Notes: generated by a model not told the origin, from the sequence alone. 32,000 nucleotides of DNA from Propionibacterium ruminifibrarum (GCF_900289195.1 NZ_OMOH01000001.1:238706-270705), one strand, 5' to 3'; counted from the first letter of the stretch, positions 5,977 to 27,498 are shown. Program-made: numbers and translations.

Positions 5977-7380
5977 TCAGTCACCAACATCCAGGCTCAT
6001 CAGATCATCCATGGTCTCACGGCGAATCATAGGGTGCAGCGCGCCCCCGCTCACGCGCACCACGGGAGGACGCAGCGCGTGGTTGTAGTTGCTGGCCATC
6101 TCGCGGCTGTAGGCACCCATCCCCGGCACCGCGATGAGATCGCCGGGAACGATGTCGCCGGGCAGGAAGACGTCGCGCACCAGGATGTCGCCCCCCTCGC
6201 AGTGCTTTCCGACGACGCGGGACAGCACCGCGGTCTCGTCGGAGATCCGATTGGCCAGGACGCCGGAGTACTCGGCCGCGTACAGGGCGGGACGGATGTT
6301 GTCGCTCATGCCGCCGTCGACGCTCACGTACAGGCGCTGGGCACCGCCGTCAAGGTCGACGACCTTCACCGTGCCGACCGTGTAGACGGCCATGGTGCTG
6401 GGCCCGGCGATCGCCCGGCCGGGCTCGATGGACATCCGGGGCACGTCGATGTTGTAGGCGCGCGCCTCGTGCTCGACGATGTCGCGCAGTCCTGCGGCCA
6501 GGTGCTCGGGAGTCGCCGGGGAGTCCGCGCTCGTGTAGGCGATCCCGAAGCCACCGCCCAGGTCGAGTTGGGGCAGGTGGGAGCCGGTCGCGTCGGCGAA
6601 CTGGCTCATCAGTTTGATGGTGCGACGCGCGGCGATCTCGAAACCGCCGGTGTCGAAGATCTGGGAGCCGATGTGGCTGTGCACGCCGAGCAGCTCGATG
6701 TAGGGGCTGTAGTGGCAGCGGACCATGGCAACCATGGCCTGGCCGTTGGCGATCGAGAAACCGAATTTCTGGTCCTCGTGGGCCGTGGCGATGTACTCGT
6801 GGGTGTGCGCCTCGACGCCGGGGGTCACGCGCACCATGACCCTGGCCTGCCAGCCGCCCGCGCTGCACAACTCCTCGATGCGGGCGATCTCGTCCAGCGA
6901 GTCGACGATGATGCGGCCCACGCCGTTGCGCAGCGCGAGCTCGAGTTCGTCGGGGGTCTTGTTGTTCCCGTGCATGCCGATCCGGTTCGGATCCATTCCG
7001 CCGGCGAGGGCCACGACCAGTTCGCCCCCGGAGCAGACGTCGAGGTCGAGGTCCTCCTCGGCGATGATGCGTGCGATCGTCCGCGTCAGCATCGCCTTGC
7101 CGGCGTAGTAGACGTCCCAGCCGGAGAATGCCCTGGCGAACTCACGGGCTCTGGACCGGAAATCGGCCTCGTCGAAGAGGTAGACCGGTGAACCCTCCCG
7201 CTCGATCGCGGTTCGCACGTCGACACCGCCCACCTCGAGGCAACCGGCCTCGTTGCGCCTGACCGTTCGACTCCACAGCGCCGGGTCGAGGGCATTGGGG
7301 TCGTCGGGCCGGGTGAGCCATTGCGGGCTCGGGGCTGCGACGTCGGCGTGAACCGCGCCGGCAACATGCATATGAGTCAC
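5977..7380 (-). CDS. lysA: Diaminopimelate decarboxylase
   Basis: PLP-dependent Orn/DAP/Arg decarboxylase family (YAGKA lysine, HSHIGSQ, GGGFGI, CESGD-like CEGGD). Start is probably GTG at 7380 (GGAAGGA upstream) or ATG at 7371. The track start at 7467 is over-extended. Confidence 0.93.
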   Translation of the reverse strand: MTHMHVAGAVHADVAAPSPQWLTRPDDPNALDPALWSRTVRRNEAGCLEVGGVDVRTAIEREGSPVYLFDEADFRSRAREFARAFSGWDVYYAGKAMLTRTIARIIAEEDLDLDVCSGGELVVALAGGMDPNRIGMHGNNKTPDELELALRNGVGRIIVDSLDEIARIEELCSAGGWQARVMVRVTPGVEAHTHEYIATAHEDQKFGFSIANGQAMVAMVRCHYSPYIELLGVHSHIGSQIFDTGGFEIAARRTIKLMSQFADATGSHLPQLDLGGGFGIAYTSADSPATPEHLAAGLRDIVEHEARAYNIDVPRMSIEPGRAIAGPSTMAVYTVGTVKVVDLDGGAQRLYVSVDGGMSDNIRPALYAAEYSGVLANRISDETAVLSRVVGKHCEGGDILVRDVFLPGDIVPGDLIAVPGMGAYSREMASNYNHALRPPVVRVSGGALHPMIRRETMDDLMSLDVGD

Positions 7381-7526
7381 GATGCACAATCCTTCCAGAC
7401 CGGATCGAAGCTTTCCAGACGAAGGCCCGGCCACCCGCCGGCTCCAACGGCCCCGGCGCGGCGCCATTCGCCACCGCCCTCACCAGGGCGCTATGCTGAA
7501 GCGCGGCCCACCAGATCGGGGGCCAT

Positions 7527-7598
7527 GCTCCCGTAGCTCAGGGGATAGAGCACCGCCCTCCGGAGGCGGGTGCGAGGGTTCGAATCCCTCCGGGAGCG
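7527..7598 (+). tRNA. tRNA-Arg (anticodon CCG)
   Basis: Hand-folded cloverleaf: acceptor GCTCCCG/CGGGAGC, D arm GCTC-AGGGGATA-GAGC, anticodon arm CCGCC-CTCCGGA-GGCGG, T arm GAGGG-TTCGAAT-CCCTC, discriminator G. CCA is not encoded. Confidence 0.93.
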
Positions 7599-7685
7599 CC
7601 CTACGACCGAACCTACCTCGCGCATCGGCGCGGGGCCTTGCAGCTGAATGGGCGGTGCTCGCCACCTGGCCGCGGAAGGGGCACG

Positions 7686-9098
7686 ATGACGGCAGACCAG
7701 CCACTCATCGGTACCGGTGCCACCGCCGCCACCCCTTCGGGCCTGTCCACCCGCATCTCGCGTCAGATCACGCTGGCCTTCACCCGCGAGCGCCTCCAGT
7801 CGGGTCGCTTCCTGCTGTTCTTCTGGTTCGTCGCCCGTCTGGTCATCTGCTGCATCTGGGCCTTCCTGACCCCCTCGACGCAGGGAGACGTCGTCTACTA
7901 CTACGAGAAGATCCAGGTCTTGTTCGACTCCGGGCCGGCGAGCACGCTCACCGAATACCCCACCCCGGTCATCGCCCTGCTGGTCGTCCCCTACCTGCTC
8001 GGGTTCGGCACCCAGCACGGTTACGTGGTGGCCTTCGCCCTCATGATGCTGGCCCTCGACGCGGCCTTCACCTGGTCGCTCTGGCACACCGGTGGCGCGA
8101 TGAAGGGGCAGGCGGTCGTCTTCTGGACGCTCTTCCTGGCCCTGGTCGGTCCGACCGCCTATCTGCGCTTCGATCTTCTCACCAGCGTCCTCGCCGGCTG
8201 GTCCGTCATCTTCCTGCTGCGCCGTCACCACGTCACCGCGGGCGCCCTGACGGCGGCGGGTGCCGCGGTGAAGCTGTGGCCCGCGCTGCTGTGGCCGGCC
8301 CTGCTGCCCGGCTCCAGGCGCCAGAAGATCACCACGACGGCCGGTTTCGCGGTCACCGGAATCGTCCTGGTGCTGGCCTCCATCGGGTTCGCCGGCTGGG
8401 ACCGCCTCATGTCGCCGCTGCACTGGCAGTCGGGGCGGGGCCTGCAGATCGAGTCCATCGCGGCCACGCCGCCGATGCTCGGACGAGCACTCGGGACCGG
8501 TGACTACGTGGTGACCCTCAGCCGCTACCAGGCCTACGAGATCTGGGGGCCGGGCGTGAGCGCGATCGTCGCGGTCGCCGACATGGCCTTCTACGTGGGC
8601 ATCGTCGCCGCGCTTCTCGCCTATCTGGTGTGGTTGTGGCGTGGCCATGGCCGCATCATCGAGGCAGTCGCCCTGCTGCAGCTGGTGATCCTCATCATGA
8701 TCGTCACGAACAAGACCTTCAGCCCGCAGTACATCATGTGGATCGGTGGCCCTCAGGCAGCCGCGTACGCCGTGCTCGGTGCGCGCAGCCAGCGCACCGA
8801 GAGCTTCTTCACGGATCGTTCGCGCATGAACGCGATCTCGATGTGGATGCTCGTGGCCACCGCCTTCACCCTGCTCGTCTATCCGCTCAGCTATGACCGC
8901 CTGGTCAGCGACTGGAACGTCAGCGACGAGCTGCTGCGCCTGCCGGCCACGGTGCTGCTGGCCCTGCGCAACGTCGCGGTGGTCATCGTCCTGGGGCTCG
9001 TGGTGCGCTGGGTGTGGAGCTACCTGCGCCCGTCGGCGGTCAGGGCCGTTCGCGCTCGACGTGGCGGGACCGTCCTCCCCCCTGGTCCAGGACGATGA
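7686..9098 (+). CDS. GT87 / DUF2029-family polytopic membrane glycosyltransferase (polyprenyl-phosphate-sugar dependent, GT-C type), paralogue 1
   Basis: Multi-TM protein with a first-loop Asp motif (QGDVVYYYE), TEYPTPV, KLWPALL, WQSGRGLQIES and NKTFSPQY blocks. ATG at 7686 follows GAAGGGG. The family call rests on remembered motifs, not a search. Confidence 0.7.
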   Translation: MTADQPLIGTGATAATPSGLSTRISRQITLAFTRERLQSGRFLLFFWFVARLVICCIWAFLTPSTQGDVVYYYEKIQVLFDSGPASTLTEYPTPVIALLVVPYLLGFGTQHGYVVAFALMMLALDAAFTWSLWHTGGAMKGQAVVFWTLFLALVGPTAYLRFDLLTSVLAGWSVIFLLRRHHVTAGALTAAGAAVKLWPALLWPALLPGSRRQKITTTAGFAVTGIVLVLASIGFAGWDRLMSPLHWQSGRGLQIESIAATPPMLGRALGTGDYVVTLSRYQAYEIWGPGVSAIVAVADMAFYVGIVAALLAYLVWLWRGHGRIIEAVALLQLVILIMIVTNKTFSPQYIMWIGGPQAAAYAVLGARSQRTESFFTDRSRMNAISMWMLVATAFTLLVYPLSYDRLVSDWNVSDELLRLPATVLLALRNVAVVIVLGLVVRWVWSYLRPSAVRAVRARRGGTVLPPGPGR

Positions 9099-10456
9099 GG
9101 AGCCGCCCGACCATGCAGCAGCTGTCACCGCACGACGACCGAACCCCGACCCCGGGGGGCGGCTCAGCCCTCTGGCTGATCGGATTCTGGACCCTGAGCC
9201 GGATCGTCATGCTGTTCCTGTGGCAGGCGCTGTGCAGCTTCGTCCGCAATGACGTGAACTACTACGCGATGTCCGTTTCCGGTCTGCCCGTCCCCGTCCT
9301 GACGGACCTGACCGGCGTCCTGATCGAGTACCCCACTCCCCTCGTCTGGCTCATCCAGGTGCTCGAGTGGCCCTCAGCCGGTTCGGTCGATCTGTACGTC
9401 CTGCTCTTCGCGGTACTCGTGGCGACCGCCGACGGCGTCTGCTGCGCCATGCTCCACACCTTTGAGAGCGCCCGTGCGGCATGGGTCTGGGCGGCCTGCG
9501 GCGCCCTGCTCGGCCCGTTGCTGTGGTTCCGACTCGACATCGTCCCGGCCCTGTGCGTACTGGGCGCGCTGCACCAGATGAGCCGCCGGCCCGCCCTGGC
9601 CGGCGCGCTGCTGGCGCTCGGCGCCGGGTTCAAGCTGTGGCCGGCGCTGCTCGTCCTGCCGATGCTGGGCCGCTCACGCACGGCCCGGCGCCGTGGCGTC
9701 GGGTTCGTCCTCACCGGCATGGTGCTCGTCCTGCTCTCGGTGGCCACATCCGGTCTCGGCCGGACCGTCTCGCCGCTGACCTGGCAGTCCGAGCGGGGGT
9801 TGCAGATCGAATCGGTCTGGGCCACTCCGCTCATGCTCGCCCGTGCTCTCGGCGCCACCGGCGTGGACGTCCAGTTCAGTGATTTCAAGGCCTACGAGGT
9901 CTTCGCCGCCTCCGTCGGAGGCTGGCGGATCGCGGCAAGCGCGGCCATGATCATCCTGGTCGCGCTGTCCGTGGCCCTGTCGGCCGTCCTCGCCCTGCGC
10001 GAGCAGGAGCAGGCCCCGATCTCACCCGGCACTCCCCCCGGTCACGAGTGGGCCGTCCGGCTGGCGGTCCTGGCGATCATCTGCGGATGGATCGTGGCGA
10101 ACAAGACCCTCAGCCCCCAGTACATGACCTGGCTCTTCGGCCCGCTGGCCCTCGTCGCCTCGGGGCTGGGCACCCCCGACAGGGCCGGAGCGGCCAGGCG
10201 ACTCGTGGCCGCCGGGCTGACCGCGACGGCCCTGACCCAGCTCGTCTATCCCCTCACCTACAGCGGCATCATCTCCGCCCTCGATCCGAACATCGGGTCG
10301 ACGATGATGCTCGTCCTGCGCAACCTGTGCGTCGTCGCGTTGGCCGTCCTTGCCTGGGTCGAGGCCTTCGTCGCCGCGCTGGGTCTCAAGCGGTCGGCGG
10401 CGTCCCCACTGTCTCCCCGTGACGAACCCCGATCCGCTTTGCCAACTCAGTCCTGA
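9095..10456 (+). CDS. GT87 / DUF2029-family polytopic membrane glycosyltransferase, paralogue 2
   Basis: Shares the same motif series as the upstream gene (RNDVNYY, IEYPTPL, KLWPALL, WQSERGLQIES, NKTLSPQY, LVYPLTY). The ATG at 9095 overlaps the upstream stop (ATGA). An alternative ATG lies at 9113. Confidence 0.7.
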   Translation: MRSRPTMQQLSPHDDRTPTPGGGSALWLIGFWTLSRIVMLFLWQALCSFVRNDVNYYAMSVSGLPVPVLTDLTGVLIEYPTPLVWLIQVLEWPSAGSVDLYVLLFAVLVATADGVCCAMLHTFESARAAWVWAACGALLGPLLWFRLDIVPALCVLGALHQMSRRPALAGALLALGAGFKLWPALLVLPMLGRSRTARRRGVGFVLTGMVLVLLSVATSGLGRTVSPLTWQSERGLQIESVWATPLMLARALGATGVDVQFSDFKAYEVFAASVGGWRIAASAAMIILVALSVALSAVLALREQEQAPISPGTPPGHEWAVRLAVLAIICGWIVANKTLSPQYMTWLFGPLALVASGLGTPDRAGAARRLVAAGLTATALTQLVYPLTYSGIISALDPNIGSTMMLVLRNLCVVALAVLAWVEAFVAALGLKRSAASPLSPRDEPRSALPTQS

Positions 10457-11109: not shown

Positions 11110-12579
11110 TCACAGGGCCAGTGTCTCGGCCGGGATGACGACCCGGGAGGTGGCACCGACGCCGTCGGGGTTGTTGAACAAGGTGAAGTCACCGTGCAGG
11201 TCGGCCGCCAGCGTCGCGACGATCGACGTGCCGAGGCTGTCGGTGTGGAAGAGCCGGAAGTCATCGGCCAGACCGACGCCCTGGTCGACGACGTCGAGGA
11301 TCAGCCCGCCGTCCTCCTGACGCTGCGGAACCACGCGCACGGCACCGTCACCGGATTCCAGGCCGTGCTCGATCGCGTTCTGGCACAGCTCCGTCATGAT
11401 GAGCGACAACGAGGTGGCCACCTTGGCCGGGACGAGCCCGAAACTCCCCTCGCGGGTGACGCGGACGACACCGGAACTGGCCGCCATGTCCCCGACCATC
11501 TGCAGAATCGTGTCCGCTATCTCGTCGAACTCGGCGGCCTCATCAATGCTCCGCGACAGGATCTCGTGGACGATGGAGATCGACTGCACACGACTCATCG
11601 CGTCGTTGAGGTCATTCTTGGCCTCGGGGGAGGTCGCCCGCCGCGACTGCAAACGCAACAGGGCCGAGACCGTCTGCAGGTTGTTCTTGACCCGGTGGTG
11701 GGTCTCGCGGATCATCGCGTTCTTCGTCTGGAGTTCGCGGTCGCGATACCGCAGATCGGTGATGTCGCGGCACAGCGCAACGATCGCGACGCACTCGCTG
11801 TCCCTGGTCAGGGGCAGAATGCGCAATCTCATGGAACCGGCACTGTTCTCGGCCTCGTACTCACCGCCCGCCATGCCGTCGAACCGCGCGTGAGTGGGTT
11901 CCACGGGCTGGACCTGCGCTCCGAGGCCCTCCTCGGTCAGGGACCACAGGTTGTCGCCGATGAGATCGCCCACCAGACCAAGAAGCCGGTAGGCGGAGAC
12001 CGCATTGGGGCTCGCGTACTCCATGAGCCCCTCGGCGCGGGCCAGGATGAGACCATCGCCGACGTGGGGACTGAGCGTGGGATCGCTCGGCGGGTCGATC
12101 GGGAAGTCACCATGCCAGACCATGTCGGACAACATGTCGGCGATCCTCAGGTAGGCGTCCTCCATGGCGCCGGGTGCTCGCACACCCATCCTGTTGGTGT
12201 GCCGCTCCAGGATGCCGATGACCTCGTCGTGACGGATGATGGGGATCGCCAGGACGTCGACGGGTATGCCGGCCTGCAGCTTGTTGTTGCTCGTCTCACA
12301 GATCTCGCGCGACAGATAGGCCTCGACGACCAACGAGTCGGGCTCGTAGCGGATCTCGGAGCCGACGACGTCCTCCTCGAGGGCGGTGGGGCCGGTCACC
12401 GGCCGGCGCTGGGCGATGGCCCAGAAGACGTTGTCATCGACGTCCGGCACCCACAGGATGAGGTCGGAGAAGCTGGTGTCCGCCAGCACGTGCCATTCGC
12501 GGACGAAGGAGCTGAGCCAGAGCCGATCCTCCTCGCCGATCTCAGTGTGCTCGGCAAACATTCGCTCCATCGTCTGCAT
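11110..12579 (-). CDS. pdtaS: Sensor histidine kinase PdtaS (GAF-PAS-HisKA_2-HATPase, cytoplasmic)
   Basis: 489 aa with no TM segments. H-box is ETHHRVKNNLQTVSALLRLQ (HisKA_2 type), with a C-terminal ATPase domain. Position next to whiB1 matches Rv3220c. Confidence 0.9.
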   Translation of the reverse strand: MQTMERMFAEHTEIGEEDRLWLSSFVREWHVLADTSFSDLILWVPDVDDNVFWAIAQRRPVTGPTALEEDVVGSEIRYEPDSLVVEAYLSREICETSNNKLQAGIPVDVLAIPIIRHDEVIGILERHTNRMGVRAPGAMEDAYLRIADMLSDMVWHGDFPIDPPSDPTLSPHVGDGLILARAEGLMEYASPNAVSAYRLLGLVGDLIGDNLWSLTEEGLGAQVQPVEPTHARFDGMAGGEYEAENSAGSMRLRILPLTRDSECVAIVALCRDITDLRYRDRELQTKNAMIRETHHRVKNNLQTVSALLRLQSRRATSPEAKNDLNDAMSRVQSISIVHEILSRSIDEAAEFDEIADTILQMVGDMAASSGVVRVTREGSFGLVPAKVATSLSLIMTELCQNAIEHGLESGDGAVRVVPQRQEDGGLILDVVDQGVGLADDFRLFHTDSLGTSIVATLAADLHGDFTLFNNPDGVGATSRVVIPAETLAL

Positions 12580-12638: not shown

Positions 12639-12926
12639 CTAGAGGACCTGTTCACTGATCATGGTGAGACGGGCGATGCGGGCGCGCAGCTCTCCCGAGG
12701 CGCACGGCGTGCCGGAGCAACTGCGCTGCACCAGGGTGCTGATGGTCGCCTCGATCCCGAAATCATCCATGCAGCTCTCGCAGATCATCAGGTGGTGACG
12801 GATCTCGTCCGCGGTGGCCTCGGGCAATTCACCGTGCAGGAAGGCGTGAACGCTGGCCGCGGCGTAGTCGCACGCCGCCTCGTCGGTCGCGCTCACGGGG
12901 AAGAAGTCTGAGCTGAACTCGTTCAT
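12639..12926 (-). CDS. rshA: Anti-sigma factor RshA/RsrA (zinc-associated anti-sigma, redox sensing)
   Basis: 95 aa with the ZAS motif HHLMICESC (H-x3-C-x2-C) plus the N-terminal Cys (AACDY). Its start overlaps the sigH stop (ATGA). Confidence 0.9.
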
Positions 12927-13615
12927 CTGTCACGCTGCCTTCCGATGCCGTGCTCACGGGCGTAGTCCGCCAGGGCCTCGCGCAGCTGAGCCCGGCCACG
13001 ATTGAGCCGCGACATCACCGTGCCGATGGGGGTTCCCATGATTTCGGCGATCTCCTTGTATGAGAAACCGTCCACGTCAGCCAGCAGCACCGCCTGACGG
13101 AAGTCATCCGACAACGAGTTGAGTGCGTCGGTGACCGCCTGGTCGGGGATGGAGTCGAGGGCCGCCATCTCGGCCGATTGCAGACCACTCGAGTCATGAG
13201 AGGCCGCCCTCGCCAACTGCCAGTCCTCGACCTCCTCGCCGCCACTGGTCTGCGGCTGGCGCTGGGCCTTGCGATAACTGTTGATGTAGGTGTTCGTGAG
13301 GATGCGATACAACCAGGCCTTGAGGTTGGTGCCCGGTTTGAACTGCTTGAAGGAGCTGAAGGCCTTCACATAGGTCTCCTGCACGATGTCCTCGGCATCG
13401 CTCGGGTTGCGCGTCATGCGAAGCGCCGCGCCGTAGAGCTGATCGAGATAGACCATGGCATCGCGCTCGAATCGGGCGATCCGCTGCTGCTGCGTCTCGG
13501 TGTCGCGAATGTCGTCGGCCTGCTGGGTCAGGTCGAAGCCGGCATCGCTCATCTCATGCGTCGGGTTCATCGCATACGACAGTACCGAATCTCTCGGTGC
13601 AGTCATCGTCATCAC
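12923..13615 (-). CDS. sigH: ECF sigma factor SigH/SigR
   Basis: [40 protein letters not shown]...[18 protein letters not shown]...[13 protein letters not shown] is close to M. tuberculosis SigH. GTG at 13615 and ATG at 13612 are both possible starts. Confidence 0.93.
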
Positions 13616-17045: not shown

Positions 17046-17337
17046 CGCTTCGTGGGTGGGTTCGCTGCGTTCGGCAGGCCCCTCCCGCCCTGTGATTCAC
17101 AGGTTCGCCGAGGCGAACATGTGAATCACAATGCCCGATGCCGAGCCCTGAGGGGCCTGCCGAACTCCGCTCACAGCCAACCCGGTGCGGGCCGAGTGGA
17201 GCCTGCGGGGGCCTTTCAGGGCTCGGCTCCGGGCATCTGGCGCACCTGTTCGCGCAGCGAACCTGTGCGCCAGCGGGCGGGAAAGGCCCCCACAGGCGCA
17301 ACGGACCCGACCCGTGCAGCAACCCACCCACCGCGAG
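17046..17337. repeat. Composite ~290-bp imperfect palindrome: two diverged inverted copies (17046-17157 and 17210-17337) of a ~115-130-bp hairpin-containing unit
   Basis: Blocks shared between copy 1 and the reverse complement of copy 2: GTGGGTGGGTT(C)GCTGC; GGCC(CCT/TTT)CCCGCCC; a central hairpin with core CACAGGTTCGC...GCGAACA(T/G)GTG; ATGCCCG; GCCGAGCCCTGA(GG/AA)GGCC. Hairpin 1 is 17091-17130 and hairpin 2 is 17237-17273. Confidence 0.75.
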
Positions 17338-17387
17338 CAGGCAACCACACGCGGCAGATCAGGCGGCGAGGCGGTGGAGCATTCGGC

Positions 17388-19172
17388 TCAGCGTCTGCTG
17401 GGGGCGGCACCGCCTGGGCCCATGCCGCCGTCGTTGCCGGGTGCCATGCCACCACCGCCGGGCCCCATGGCACCGCCGCTGGACTGGTTGGCGACCACGT
17501 TCGTCGAGGTGCCGTCGACGCTCACCGTGTAGGTGCCGCCGGGGGTCATGGCCGGGGAGCTGACGATGATGTTCTGGGCCGCCCTGGCCAGCGTGTAACT
17601 GGCGATCTCGGTGCCGGACTCGTCCGAGATCGTCACGGTGGAGCCGGCACGGCCGTCCGCGGAGGCCTGGACCCAGCCCTGCGGGGAGTCGGCGTCGGGC
17701 GACTCGGCCATGCCCTGGCTGCCCGCGGCGAAGAGCGTGCCGCCGGTGATCTGCAGGGAGGTGCCGACGTCGAGGGCGCCGTTGTCGCCGCTGCTTGGGC
17801 CGTTGATGACGGTGGTGCCGCCGGAGATGACCATGTCGCCGTTGGAGTCCAGGCCGTCGCCGTCGGCGGTGATCGTGACGGTGCCGCCGGCGATCGTCAG
17901 CGTCGAGTCGGTGGTGGCCATCGGGTCCTGGGACGTGCCCGAGCCGTCGGAGGCGTTCATGCCGTCATCGCTGGAGGTCACCTCGACGGTGCCGTCGTTG
18001 ATGGTGATGTCGTTGGCCTCGAAGCCCTCGTAGCTGGTGGAGACGGTGACGGCTCCGCCGTTGACCAGCAGCGCGTTCTCGGCGTGCACCCCGTCGTCGC
18101 CGCTGGCCAGGTCGATGGTGCCGCCGTCGATCTGGACGACGTCGTCGCTGTGCAGGGCGTCGTCGCTGGAGTCGATGGTGACGGTGCCGTCGGCGAGGCT
18201 CACGGCGACGCCTGCCTTGACGCCCTTGGTCGACGCCTCGTCGTCAGCCGCGGTGCCGGAACCGGCAGTGATGGTCGTCGTGCCGCCCGTCTGGATGACA
18301 TCGGTGATCGCCGCCACGCCGTCGCCTCCGGCATCGATGGTCAGGGCGCCGTCGTCGATCTGGACATAGCCTCGTGTGGTGTCCTCCTCGTTGTCGGAGG
18401 TGAGACCGTCGCCGCCGCTGGTCACCCGGACGGTGCCGCCCTGAACGATCAGGTAGTCCTTGCCACGGATGCCGTCGTCGACGGCGGTCACGGTGATCGT
18501 GCCGGAGTCGATGACCAGCCCGTCCGTGCTGGTGATGCCGTCGGCGGTCCTGCCCGTCACGTCCAGGGCGCCCTGGCCGCTGATCGTCAGATCGTCCTTC
18601 GAGTGGAGCGCGGCGTTGGCCGCGCCGTCGGCGCTGGTGTCGTAGCCGGAACCGTCCGTGAGCCGGTTGACCGAGTCGTCCGCCAGCAGCACCACGGTCT
18701 CATCGGCCTCCTCCACGAGGAGGGCGGGGCCCGTCGAGCTGGTGATCTCGGCTCCGTCGAGGATGAGGCGGACTTCGCCCTCGCCAGTCGAGTTCACGAT
18801 GATCCGGCCGTCGTCGAGCGTGCCGCTGATCCGGTAGGTGCCGACCCGGGTGATGGTGACGGTACTGCCGTCGATCGTCACGCCGTCACCGCCGCCGGAG
18901 GCACTCGCGCCGGACAGCGTGATGGTCACCACCGCGGACTCGTCGTACTCGGTGTCGGCCTCGTCGTAGTGCGAGCCCTTGTTGTTCGAGATGAGCGAGG
19001 AGGCCGTGGCCTGCTCACCGCCGGCAGTGGTGGCCGCACCCCCCGCCGCCTCACCGCCGCCGGCGGTGGTTGGGGCCGACGTGCTGGTCGCCGCCGGGTC
19101 GGTGGCGGCACTGCAACCCACGAGGCTCGCCGCGACAGCGAGACCGGCAAGGGTCTTCTTCCAAGAGATCAT
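17388..19172 (-). CDS. Secreted lipoprotein, Cthe_2159-type carbohydrate-binding parallel beta-helix protein
   Basis: Signal peptide plus lipobox MISWKKTLAGLAVAASLVGC, then an Ala/Thr/Gly linker. This is followed by about 20 serial turns of the type DG-x-TI-x-GGT-x-TI/V-x-A/S-x-DDG. The block GTYRISGTLDDGRIIVN...VRLILDGAEITSSTGPALLVEEAD is typical of this family. GGAG RBS present. Confidence 0.75.
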   Translation of the reverse strand: MISWKKTLAGLAVAASLVGCSAATDPAATSTSAPTTAGGGEAAGGAATTAGGEQATASSLISNNKGSHYDEADTEYDESAVVTITLSGASASGGGDGVTIDGSTVTITRVGTYRISGTLDDGRIIVNSTGEGEVRLILDGAEITSSTGPALLVEEADETVVLLADDSVNRLTDGSGYDTSADGAANAALHSKDDLTISGQGALDVTGRTADGITSTDGLVIDSGTITVTAVDDGIRGKDYLIVQGGTVRVTSGGDGLTSDNEEDTTRGYVQIDDGALTIDAGGDGVAAITDVIQTGGTTTITAGSGTAADDEASTKGVKAGVAVSLADGTVTIDSSDDALHSDDVVQIDGGTIDLASGDDGVHAENALLVNGGAVTVSTSYEGFEANDITINDGTVEVTSSDDGMNASDGSGTSQDPMATTDSTLTIAGGTVTITADGDGLDSNGDMVISGGTTVINGPSSGDNGALDVGTSLQITGGTLFAAGSQGMAESPDADSPQGWVQASADGRAGSTVTISDESGTEIASYTLARAAQNIIVSSPAMTPGGTYTVSVDGTSTNVVANQSSGGAMGPGGGGMAPGNDGGMGPGGAAPSRR

Positions 19173-19257
19173 GTTCTGCTCCGTGCTGTTGAGGTGATCG
19201 GGGATCAGCGGGGCGCACTCGGGGGATGTCTGCGGTCCTCCGCCATGAACGGGGTTA

Positions 19258-20133
19258 CTAGGACCGAGGGGGTGTCGGACGGCTGATGGGTATGTGCGTC
19301 ACGGGGACGTGCGGCGCGGGAACGGTACTGGTGGAGAGGTACTCCCCCACGACCAGGTCGGGGGCGAGGCGAGTCATCGTCCGGTGCCACTTGTTGTGCG
19401 GCAGGTTCTCGCGCAGGAAGGCCATGCCGGTGGCGTACTTGCTGAACCGGGCCGGCCGGCAACCCAGTCGCCACAGCAGACGGTCGGCCGCGCTTGCCGC
19501 CGCACCGGGTGACTTGGTCTCGACGACGACCGTCTGCCCGAGGCGGCCGGTCCGCCGGGTGATCTCGTAGAGCCAGGACAGGCCGTGGTCGAGGGTGAGT
19601 CGGGCCCGGGAGACCGGGTCGAAGAACGTCATACGCCGATAACGAGTGCTCAGCGTCGGCCGCAGGGCCGCCAGGCTCACCGGACCAACACCCGCCCTGC
19701 CGAGCGCCCCGTCGATCATCAGCTGCTCCGCGTCGCTCCACTGATCGGGGTGTCCTCCGGTCACCTCGATGCGTTCCTTGACGGTGTGCTCCCCGCGGCG
19801 GGTCTTGACCTCCAGCCAGCTGGTACCGGTGTCGAGATAGCTGCGCTCGCGGATCTTCCACCGGCGCTTGCGGCCGCGGGCGGCTGCGTAATAACTGTCG
19901 AGGGCATCGGTGTCGAGGTAGGTGGAGTCGTAGGTGAAGCTCTGACGGCCGTCGATCGTCAGGACCCGGGTCCAGGGCGGCAGCTCCTCGAGCAGCCCGG
20001 CCAGGAGGCGCGGCGGGACGAGGTACTTGCGGTCGACACGGATCTGCAGGGCGCCGGCGTTGTTCAACTCGGCCAGGTCGATCGGCGGGAAGCCCGCCGT
20101 GGGGGTTTCGCGGGGCATCATGGTGGTGCTCAT
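19258..20133 (-). CDS. VTC-domain (polyphosphate-polymerase-like, triphosphate tunnel fold) protein
   Basis: 291 aa. LQIRVDRKYLVP, RRWKIRERSY and SWLEVKTRRG basic beta-strand motifs fit the bacterial VTC/CYTH-like family. Its start overlaps the DUF4956 stop (ATGA). Confidence 0.75.
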   Translation of the reverse strand: MSTTMMPRETPTAGFPPIDLAELNNAGALQIRVDRKYLVPPRLLAGLLEELPPWTRVLTIDGRQSFTYDSTYLDTDALDSYYAAARGRKRRWKIRERSYLDTGTSWLEVKTRRGEHTVKERIEVTGGHPDQWSDAEQLMIDGALGRAGVGPVSLAALRPTLSTRYRRMTFFDPVSRARLTLDHGLSWLYEITRRTGRLGQTVVVETKSPGAAASAADRLLWRLGCRPARFSKYATGMAFLRENLPHNKWHRTMTRLAPDLVVGEYLSTSTVPAPHVPVTHIPISRPTPPRS

Positions 20134-20742
20134 GCCCGTGCCCCATGGGCGCCACCTGCGACGGGGCCTGGCGCGGCGCGACGGGCCCCGTCCTCGTCGC
20201 CGTCGGTGGCCCGGAACCGGACGTCGACCAGGGTGGTGTCGTTGACGAAGTCCAGACGCTGCACCGAGGCGGTGAGTACCTCGCCGCCGAGGCGGGCGCT
20301 CAGCTCATGGCGGAGAGCGGCCTCGTCGGCGATCGCGTGGTCGAGCAGGACGACCTGGCGGTTGGCCCGCCCGGTGACACGACGGGTGTCGATGATCGCC
20401 ATGGACAGGACGAGGACGACCATCAGCGCAATGCCGTAGGTCAGTGACACACCGACACCGCCGAGCAGCCCCCAGTGCCAGGGCGCTGAAGTAGTAGGCG
20501 GTCTCGATCTGGCTGAGTTCCTCGGAGCGGAGCCGGATGATCGACAGGACGCCGAACAGGCCCATGCCCAACCCGGCCGCCGTCGCGCTGATGGACAGGG
20601 CGAAGGCGACGGCCATGACGCCGATGTTCACCGTGATGTAGGAGACGACCATGTCCCGGCGGTGGTGTCGTGGCAGGTAGACGCCGAACACCAGGAGGCA
20701 GATCATCACCACATCGATGGCGGCGAGAATGAGATCGGACAT
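20130..20742 (-). pseudogene. DUF4956-family membrane protein gene interrupted by a +1 frameshift in a G5 (plus-strand C5, 20469-20473) run
   Basis: The N-terminal half (MSDLILAAIDVVMICLLVFGVYLPRHHRRDMVVSY...LSIIRLRSEELSQIETAYYFSALALG) and C-terminal half (LLGGVGVSLTYGIALMVV...VQRLDFVNDTTLVDVRF) sit in two frames. Deleting one G restores a single ~204-codon ORF. The span is 613 nt, not a multiple of 3. GAAGGAG RBS precedes the ATG at 20742. Confidence 0.65.
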
Positions 20743-20800
20743 GGGCAAGTCTCCTTCGGTCGGGGGCCACCAGACAATCCAGCGCGCAAATCTGTGGCAT

Positions 20801-20858
20801 TTCTGTGCGAAACTTGTGACGAAAGCTGTGTCTCTCGGATCACAGATTTCGCACAGAA
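20801..20858. promoter_or_regulatory. 19-bp inverted repeat (17/19 match, 20-nt spacer) in the AT-rich region upstream of the DUF4956-VTC operon; candidate operator or 5'-UTR structure
   Basis: TTCTGTGCGAAACTTGTGA (20801-20819) versus TCACAGATTTCGCACAGAA (20840-20858). CTGTG/CACAG pentamers occur six times within 20790-20858. It lies 59-116 nt upstream of the start codon. Confidence 0.5.
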
Positions 20859-20923: not shown

Positions 20924-20955
20924 CGACCCGGCCGGCTCGTGAGCCGACCGGGTCG
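20924..20955 (-). terminator. serA terminator hairpin
   Basis: CGACCCGGCCGGCTC (20924-20938) pairs with GAGCCGACCGGGTCG (20941-20955), about 13-15 bp including one G-U pair. It lies 22 nt after the serA stop. Confidence 0.5.
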
Positions 20956-27417: not shown

Positions 27418-27491
27418 CGCGGGGTGGAGCAGTTCGGTAGCTCGCTGGGCTCATAACCCAGAGGTCACAGGTTCAAATCCTGTCCCCGCTA
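27418..27491 (+). tRNA. Initiator tRNA-fMet (anticodon CAT)
   Basis: CGCGGGGTGGAGCAGTTCGGTAGCTCGCTGGGCTCATAACCCAGAGGTCACAGGTTCAAATCCTGTCCCCGCTA. It has a C1:U72 mismatch and three G:C pairs closing the anticodon stem, both initiator hallmarks. It is near-identical to the mycobacterial metU as recalled. CCA is not encoded. Confidence 0.95.
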
Positions 27492-27498
27492 CGATGAG

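Follow-up and report, generated by a model that had tools for sequence, protein, structure and literature searches.

Whether bacteria possess a polyphosphate (polyP) polymerase of the VTC type is the question raised by a three-gene locus in Propionibacterium ruminifibrarum. VTC-type polymerases have been treated as eukaryotic, and bacterial polyP synthesis has been attributed to PPK1 and PPK2 (PMC12526157). The locus occupies positions 17388–20742 of the window, a term we use for the whole 32,000-nucleotide stretch that was analysed (GCF_900289195.1, NZ_OMOH01000001.1:238706-270705). A sequence-only reading had described it as three co-directional minus-strand genes, encoding a DUF4956 membrane protein, a VTC-domain protein and a Cthe_2159-type beta-helix lipoprotein, which would form a machine that makes and exports, or displays, an anionic polymer. 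The analysis presented here suggests, from profiles and structural models, that this module is a bacterial variant of the VTC-type polyP polymerase system, one that has been noticed in print and is uncharacterised.

Open reading frame (ORF) and Pfam analyses of the three proteins agree with the earlier gene orientation and family assignments. The coding regions are consecutive, all on the minus strand, and lie in actinobacterial sequence of 66–73% G+C. The features of the locus are as follows:

17388–19172, minus strand: Cthe_2159-type parallel beta-helix lipoprotein of 594 amino acids (aa); PF14262, 318.7 bits, PDB 4peu match, lipobox
19173–19257, minus strand: intergenic gap of 85 nucleotides (nt), with GGAG at 19179–19182; sequence, fold z = −0.13
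19258–20133, minus strand: VTC-domain (Vtc4-like triphosphate tunnel) protein of 291 aa, isoelectric point (pI) 10.15; PF09359, 88.9 bits
20130–20450, minus strand: C-terminal frame of DUF4956, comprising transmembrane helix 5 and a cytoplasmic beta-alpha-beta-beta domain; Pfam profile 92–169, E = 1e-17
20305–20742, minus strand: N-terminal frame of DUF4956, ATG at 20742 and stop at 20305; Pfam profile 1–83, E = 1e-30
20469–20473, minus strand: run of five G (G5) with a +1 insertion breaking DUF4956; DNA alignment with the related loci L002, L003 and L005

The DUF4956 TGA overlaps the VTC ATG in the ATGA at 20130–20133, and the gap before the lipoprotein gene carries its GGAG ribosome-binding site six nt before the ATG at 19172, both as described earlier. 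No significant structure was found in the gap.

The VTC-domain protein

The VTC-domain protein matches PF09359 with E = 4.8e-25, its 88.9 bits being above the cut-off of 23, and its residues 32–240 cover positions 2–234 of the 235-position model. Its 291 residues contain no second Pfam domain, no SPX domain and no transmembrane segment. A single-sequence search of the PDB with this protein was not significant (E 0.58), so a family profile was needed to reach Vtc4; the profile of 30 actinobacterial homologues matches the Vtc4 catalytic domain (3g3q) at E = 3e-8.

The Vtc4 numbering used here is that of the 3G3Q chain plus an offset of 185, aligned to the window protein. The catalytic residue numbers, which we take to be those of Hothorn et al. 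2009, are reproduced consistently by this offset. Ten tunnel residues align, given here as Vtc4 residue and window residue: K200 and K36, R264 and R95, R266 and R97, K281 and K110, K294 and K119, Y359 and Y165, R361 and R167, R373 and R178, S457 and S231, and K458 and K232. All ten are invariant across the 30 actinobacterial homologues, and the basic tunnel residues, whose lack would have spoken against the sequence-only reading, are present and fixed in the family alignment.

The AlphaFold2 model of the protein is a beta-barrel (predicted local distance difference test score, pLDDT, 86; predicted template-modelling score, pTM, 0.82). In a Foldseek search of the PDB with this model, the nine top matches are all Vtc4 (E 3e-13 to 7e-11, template-modelling scores 0.49–0.57), which outranks the inactive Vtc2/3 domains, E. 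coli YgiF, and the CYTH cyclases and triphosphatases in the list. On these profile and model comparisons, the enzyme is firmly predicted to be equipped to bind triphosphate in its tunnel. The family is large, with 10,240 clusters at 50% identity at E ≤ 1e-3 and 2,312 at E ≤ 1e-30.

Conservation of the module

A scan limited to one genome per species gave 544 VTC relatives, from which 80 loci were kept, all from Actinomycetota. Neighbourhoods were counted with hidden Markov models (HMMs) built from the loci and searched in six frames; matches to positions 1–250 of the CotH model are artefacts of over-extended ORFs and have been left out of the counts.

DUF4956 lies immediately 5' of VTC on the same strand in 78 of the 79 loci with enough sequence, and in 53/84 pairs the sequence offers a start codon for VTC within a 4-nt overlap with the stop of DUF4956. 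Directly 3' of VTC there is a Cthe_2159 gene in 49 of 74 loci and a CotH gene in a further 14, together 63/74. Where at least 5 kb is available on each side, 57 of the 61 loci have Cthe_2159 within 10 kb or CotH directly downstream. The CotH partner is secreted and carries CHB_HEX_C and CBM2 domains. The co-conservation of the three genes and the link to CotH kinases, both predicted by the sequence-only reading, are therefore borne out by synteny, with CotH taking the place of Cthe_2159 in 14 loci. The recurrence of the trio across Actinomycetota is far beyond chance.

VTC and DUF4956 are also adjacent in every plasmid record that carries VTC (15/15), and where the third gene is neither Cthe_2159 nor CotH its identity changes with lineage. 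In Nocardioides it encodes a metallophosphoesterase with a twin-arginine translocation (TAT) signal, and on megaplasmids of Aminobacter, Shinella and Nitratireductor a phytase-like esterase (PF13449). In Nitratireductor a PiT inorganic phosphate transporter is inserted in the trio. Deinococcus has no such third gene, and the neighbours of its DUF4956–VTC pair are an acid phosphatase gene and phnDCE. An OmpR-type response regulator and a histidine kinase are found nearby in 15/61 actinobacterial loci, and a NAGPA phosphodiester glycosidase together with a GT2-GtrA glycosyltransferase pair in 22/61. From these arrangements it is firm that a core of two genes, for DUF4956 and a Vtc4-like enzyme, is linked genetically to an exported protein that differs between lineages, and equally firm that the neighbourhoods of the core are repeatedly phosphate-related.

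Several other arrangements have been observed. The alphaproteobacterial DUF4956–VTC–esterase trios are located at L088 6403–8715, L091 4400–6726, L092 4469–6721 and L090 5366–9406; in Aminobacter and Nitratireductor an extracytoplasmic function (ECF) sigma/anti-sigma pair and an S8 peptidase gene lie upstream of the trio. In Arthrobacter, Microbacterium and relatives, DUF4956 is immediately preceded by NAGPA and GT2-GtrA genes in the same orientation (L010, L016, L041, L044, L052, L058, L063, L068, L081, L085 and L086, at about 7000–9300 in each, and at 2196–4272 in L041). Actinomyces bowdenii and A. naeslundii have two tandem DUF4956–VTC pairs before one Cthe_2159 gene (L025 9269–14640; L080 7789–13383), which echo the duplicated VTC-'tubulin' pairs reported in NELoc-2 of Clostridium perfringens.

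The membrane partner and its interruption in P. ruminifibrarum

The architecture of DUF4956 (PF16316) is best seen in an intact relative, P0121, which scores 184 bits. Its model contains five helices (3–22, 29–51, 53–71, 78–95 and 100–122) and a beta-alpha-beta-beta domain at 126–178 that is well predicted (pLDDT about 90). The invariant residues of the family fall into two clusters, PRxxRRD after helix 1 and GLGxGLFGVLSIIRLRSxExxxxExxYxF spanning helices 3–4, and the invariant core is glycine-zipper-like in the alignment. By the positive-inside rule, the arginines and the C-terminal domain would lie on the cytoplasmic side, where the VTC enzyme is. Foldseek gives weak ACT-like matches to the small C-terminal domain. 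A link of DUF4956 to Vtc1 or MgtC was also considered and cannot be claimed, the PDB searches having returned these weak ACT-like matches only.

The interval 20130–20742 had been read as one gene, which it is not. It measures 613 nt and cannot be a single ORF, and the DUF4956 match is split over two frames, profile positions 1–83 (107 bits) and 92–169 (65 bits). From the ATG at 20742, the N-terminal frame stays native for 91 residues (to 20470) and then runs out of frame for 54 more before the stop at 20305; the C-terminal frame ends at 20130. The frames part at the GGGGG of 20469–20473, which is GGGG in L002, a rumen metagenome contig that is 99% identical, has the same gene order, encodes a 99%-identical VTC protein and has an intact DUF4956 of 203 aa. 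DUF4956 is also intact in P. australiense (213 aa) and in an uncultured Propionibacterium (201 aa), and among the homologous loci compared the frameshift is seen in the P. ruminifibrarum genome only, its close relatives being intact at 201–213 aa. The extra base interrupts the invariant helix 4 motif ALALG|LLGG, so that the truncated protein ends beyond helix 3, midway through helix 4, and helix 5 and the cytoplasmic domain are obtainable only via an internal GTG start. The GenBank record annotates only a 106-aa C-terminal piece with a GTG start (exact match to SPF67222.1/WP_239018338.1). Programmed frameshifting at the G run was considered and rejected: relatives have GGGG, GGGC or CGGC at this place and stay in frame, so that the run lacks the conservation of a slippery site.

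The G5 run is probably a genuine strain-specific inactivating mutation, and otherwise a homopolymer error. Since the +1 G insertion truncates DUF4956, the module is probably inactive in P. ruminifibrarum, judging from its sequence, and the machine that had been proposed is probably not intact in this genome. It is unlikely, yet worth weighing, that the extra G is a sequencing or assembly error and that the operon is actually intact and functional. The difference is one base in a homopolymer, and the rest of the operon is undecayed, with full-length VTC and lipoprotein genes at ~99% identity with their counterparts in the rumen relative. On the other hand, G5 is present both in the GenBank record and in the Logan assembly of ERR1938110, which matches the window without a single difference for 12,863 bases, although the same reads are possibly behind both. 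Decayed copies of the module are also known in other genomes (L029, L060 and L065), and the module therefore appears dispensable and sporadically lost. These copies lie at L029 10863–11488, L065 8887–9827 and L060 7059–12127, and the decay is seen as a Cthe_2159 gene broken into three pieces, a shortened DUF4956 joined to remnants of NAGPA, and a number of split genes.

The exported lipoprotein

The third protein matches PF14262 (Cthe_2159) at E = 3.3e-95. Its N-terminus, MISWKKTLAGLAVAASLVGC, is a signal peptide with an LVGC lipobox and a lipidated Cys at residue 20, so the earlier designation as a lipoprotein holds; of 63 Cthe_2159 partner proteins, at least 45 carry a lipobox. The protein is arranged as a Thr/Ala/Gly linker, a beta-helix, more helix turns, a C-terminal domain and a Gly/Met/Pro-rich tail. 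The beta-helix, residues 94–304, matches the Cthe_2159 structure (PDB 4peu, E = 4.6e-32). The mature lipoprotein is strongly acidic, with a pI of 4.05 and 84 Asp/Glu residues to 18 Lys/Arg. The tail, GGAMGPGGGGMAPGNDGGMGPGGAAPSRR (window 17388–17480), is kept in the 99% relative.

Proposed mechanism and alternatives

We propose that, where the module is intact, the VTC enzyme would dock on a DUF4956 oligomer at the inner membrane face and would polymerise the gamma-phosphate of ATP into polyP, which would be delivered across the membrane. Outside, the lipoprotein would bind the polymer, probably via Ca2+, and in other lineages CotH kinases or phosphoesterases would use the exported polymer instead. 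Polymerase activity, a VTC–DUF4956 complex, translocation and binding of the polymer by the lipoprotein are all steps that we infer. What speaks for export is that all partner classes act outside the cytoplasm, among them a kinase that otherwise has no phosphoryl donor there, and the idea of polymer export or display is strengthened by the exported phospho-enzymes found in place of the third gene in other lineages. The founders of both the Cthe_2159 beta-helix family and the phytase-like esterase family are presumably Ca2+-dependent. The full model, a membrane-docked polyP polymerase that passes its product to the cell surface, draws on sequence comparison and structural models and is put forward tentatively, at somewhat less than even confidence.

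A broader form of this model would make DUF4956 plus VTC a third, unrecognised and vectorial bacterial route to polyP. Surface polyP would be held by Ca2+-binding beta-helix lipoproteins, trimmed by phytase-like esterases or metallophosphoesterases, and would serve as phosphoryl donor for secreted CotH kinases. PolyP as an extracytoplasmic donor would account for kinases that function beyond the membrane, where they have no ATP. We regard this broader form as rather doubtful.

A number of points weigh against the membrane-docked, exporting polymerase. In the enzyme, the probable counterpart of the Vtc4 E426 strand is E205-T206-K207 (E205/K207 for E426/K428), an assignment made by motif order in a stretch that is unaligned. 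Characterised triphosphate tunnel metalloenzymes (TTMs) other than Vtc4 are mostly hydrolases (the CYTH/TTM family), and the literature search found no published assay of any bacterial VTC-domain protein. The membrane part of DUF4956, modelled in P0121 as a monomer, reaches a pLDDT of 60–70, which is to be expected if partners are needed. Profile and fold searches of DUF4956 against the PDB found no significant relative and no Vtc1 (best Foldseek E 0.03), and the earlier analogy, that the enzyme threads its polymer through its own membrane channel as Vtc4 does, is consequently without homology support. No VTC–DUF4956 fusion was found among the ten longest family members. The lipoprotein is so acidic (pI 4.05) that it could bind polyP only through cations. 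Finally, bacteria tolerate cytoplasmic polyP, so nothing forces its export.

One alternative is an inward-facing arrangement, in which DUF4956 would only anchor and regulate the VTC enzyme and cytoplasmic polyP would be a sink for phosphate captured or released by the exported partner. It fits the phosphate-acquisition neighbours, namely PiT with the phytase-like esterase in Nitratireductor and the acid phosphatase with phnDCE in Deinococcus. It also agrees with the PDB profile and fold searches, which give no channel evidence for DUF4956, and with the weak resemblance of the DUF4956 C-terminal domain to ACT-type regulatory domains. However, a secreted CotH kinase as the partner in 14 loci misfits scavenging, and tight coupling to a five-helix protein with a glycine-zipper-like invariant core exceeds the needs of a simple anchor. 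Inward-facing synthesis is given a clear minority of our confidence.

It is more improbable that the VTC protein is no polymerase at all and acts as a triphosphatase, a polyphosphatase or another tunnel enzyme that, along with the glycosyltransferase and phosphodiester-glycosidase genes nearby, serves to modify an exopolysaccharide or a surface glycopolymer. The fold is common to YgiF and other CYTH hydrolases, the NAGPA and GT2-GtrA genes adjoin the module in the 22/61 loci given above, and the VTC/DUF4956/CotH set lies beside pel operons in Firmicutes and bifidobacteria (PMC7112168). Against this, catalytic Vtc4, and not the hydrolases, gives the best matches in both fold and profile, the lysine equivalent to Vtc4 K200 is invariant, and an HMM search found no NAGPA, GT2-GtrA or CotH gene in this 32-kb window. 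An anti-phage defence system was dropped from consideration, since PADLOC models match none of the three proteins.

Relation to known systems

Among known systems, one of the nearest is the yeast VTC complex (Vtc4 with Vtc1/2/3; PDB 3G3Q, 7YTJ and 8I6V). It and the bacterial module both have a triphosphate-tunnel beta-barrel with tunnel Lys/Arg residues, including the K200 equivalent, and both partner a soluble catalytic domain with a membrane component. The differences are in the surrounding parts. The bacterial protein is a stand-alone domain of 250–290 aa, without SPX and without DUF202 transmembrane helices of its own; the membrane partner is DUF4956, with five helices and a small cytoplasmic domain and no detectable similarity to Vtc1; and the bacterial module adds an exported third component.

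Parts of the module have been noticed before. In Firmicutes and bifidobacteria, pel operons are followed by an accessory cluster of genes for cotH, 'polyphosphate polymerase', DUF4956 and DUF4832 (Whitfield et al. 2020, PMC7112168), and NELoc-2 of C. perfringens carries VTC-'tubulin'-CotH genes (Lepp et al. 2010, PMC2879425). These clusters share with the window locus the VTC and DUF4956 core, an exported partner and an uncharacterised function. They differ in that the window partner is a Cthe_2159 lipoprotein and not CotH or DUF4832, and, compared with the pel-linked cluster, the window has no pel genes nearby, the module being placed among housekeeping genes from serA to an inositol-monophosphatase-family gene. 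Literature searches on DUF4956, VTC with CotH, Cthe_2159, the Pfam accessions and the NCBI product names returned passing mentions only, and no experimental characterisation was found. The earlier statement that no bacterial example has been characterised thus agrees with the literature found, but the association of VTC, DUF4956 and CotH was already in print.

Cthe_2159 of Clostridium thermocellum (PDB 4PEU/4PHB) shares the right-handed beta-helix with the window lipoprotein. The founder reportedly binds cellulose, pectate and Ca2+. The window protein differs from it in being lipid-anchored, about twice as long and genetically tied to a VTC enzyme, and it adds the Thr/Ala/Gly linker, the further helix turns and the C-terminal domain. 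Other bacterial TTM enzymes (E. coli YgiF, class IV adenylate cyclases and CYTH proteins) share the superfamily fold, at Foldseek ranks 14–40, and the matches of the window protein to them are weaker than to Vtc4. They are soluble hydrolases or cyclases uncoupled to a membrane protein, unlike the VTC protein here.

Regulatory elements and genomic context

Three further features lie upstream of the operon:

20751–20754, minus strand: GGAG ribosome-binding site, 8 nt ahead of the DUF4956 ATG; sequence, with GAAGGAG kept in orthologous loci
20786–20858, minus strand: candidate operator with inverted and direct repeats; repeat search and cross-species conservation
20924–20955, minus strand: GC-rich hairpin after serA, a likely terminator; fold z-score and arm complementarity

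The hairpin at 20924–20955 directly follows serA and has 15-nt arms that are 93% complementary. The 63 nt around it fold with a free energy of −35.6 kcal/mol (z = −3.7; 0/200 shuffles as good), and it is likely a terminator isolating the trio from upstream transcription. The strong upstream terminator of the sequence-only reading stands as far as the hairpin is concerned, but the hairpin has no U tract, and the consensus terminator scan did not call it for this reason. No relevant site came out of the consensus scan for promoters and terminators. The hairpins that had been placed downstream of the operon did not withstand analysis, since 17280–17387 folds at the level of shuffled sequence (z = −0.7).

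Within the 180 nt upstream of the operon there is a 19-nt inverted repeat, with arms at 20801–20819 and 20840–20858, and CACAGA direct repeats at 11-nt spacing; the exact CACAGA-N5-CACAGA is unique to this site within the window. The repeat blocks are conserved in three Propionibacterium species, including P. australiense and the uncultured Propionibacterium, amid diverging flanks, and because of this conservation the repeats at 20786–20858 are a likely operator.

The trio is flanked by serA and an oligopeptide ATP-binding cassette (ABC) transporter on one side and by the inositol-monophosphatase-family gene, rsgA and aroA on the other, and its placement between these flanks is syntenic in three Propionibacterium species. 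The remainder of the window consists of housekeeping genes. Exact database matches of window proteins in P. ruminifibrarum are WP_220474282.1 and WP_119714506.1, and an NCBIfam scan of the trio proteins matched no model. A few kb from the operon, on the minus strand, are genes for a PdtaS-type GAF histidine kinase (11110–12579), a zf-HC2 anti-sigma factor (12639–12926) and an ECF sigma factor (12923–13615), the last being syntenic in related Propionibacterium loci. A 208-aa ORF at 9262–9888 (minus strand), with high third-position G+C, gave no match in a Pfam search. Two plus-strand tRNA genes are also present in the window, tRNA-Arg(CCG) at 7526–7601 and tRNA-Met(CAT) at 27418–27492.

Significance

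The importance of the module lies in the size of the family, the Vtc4 catalytic signature, the coupling to one membrane protein and the exported partner. If active, it would be a new source of polyP in Actinomycetota, Firmicutes, Alphaproteobacteria and Deinococcota, and it may explain both cell-surface polyP and the role of the secreted CotH kinases.

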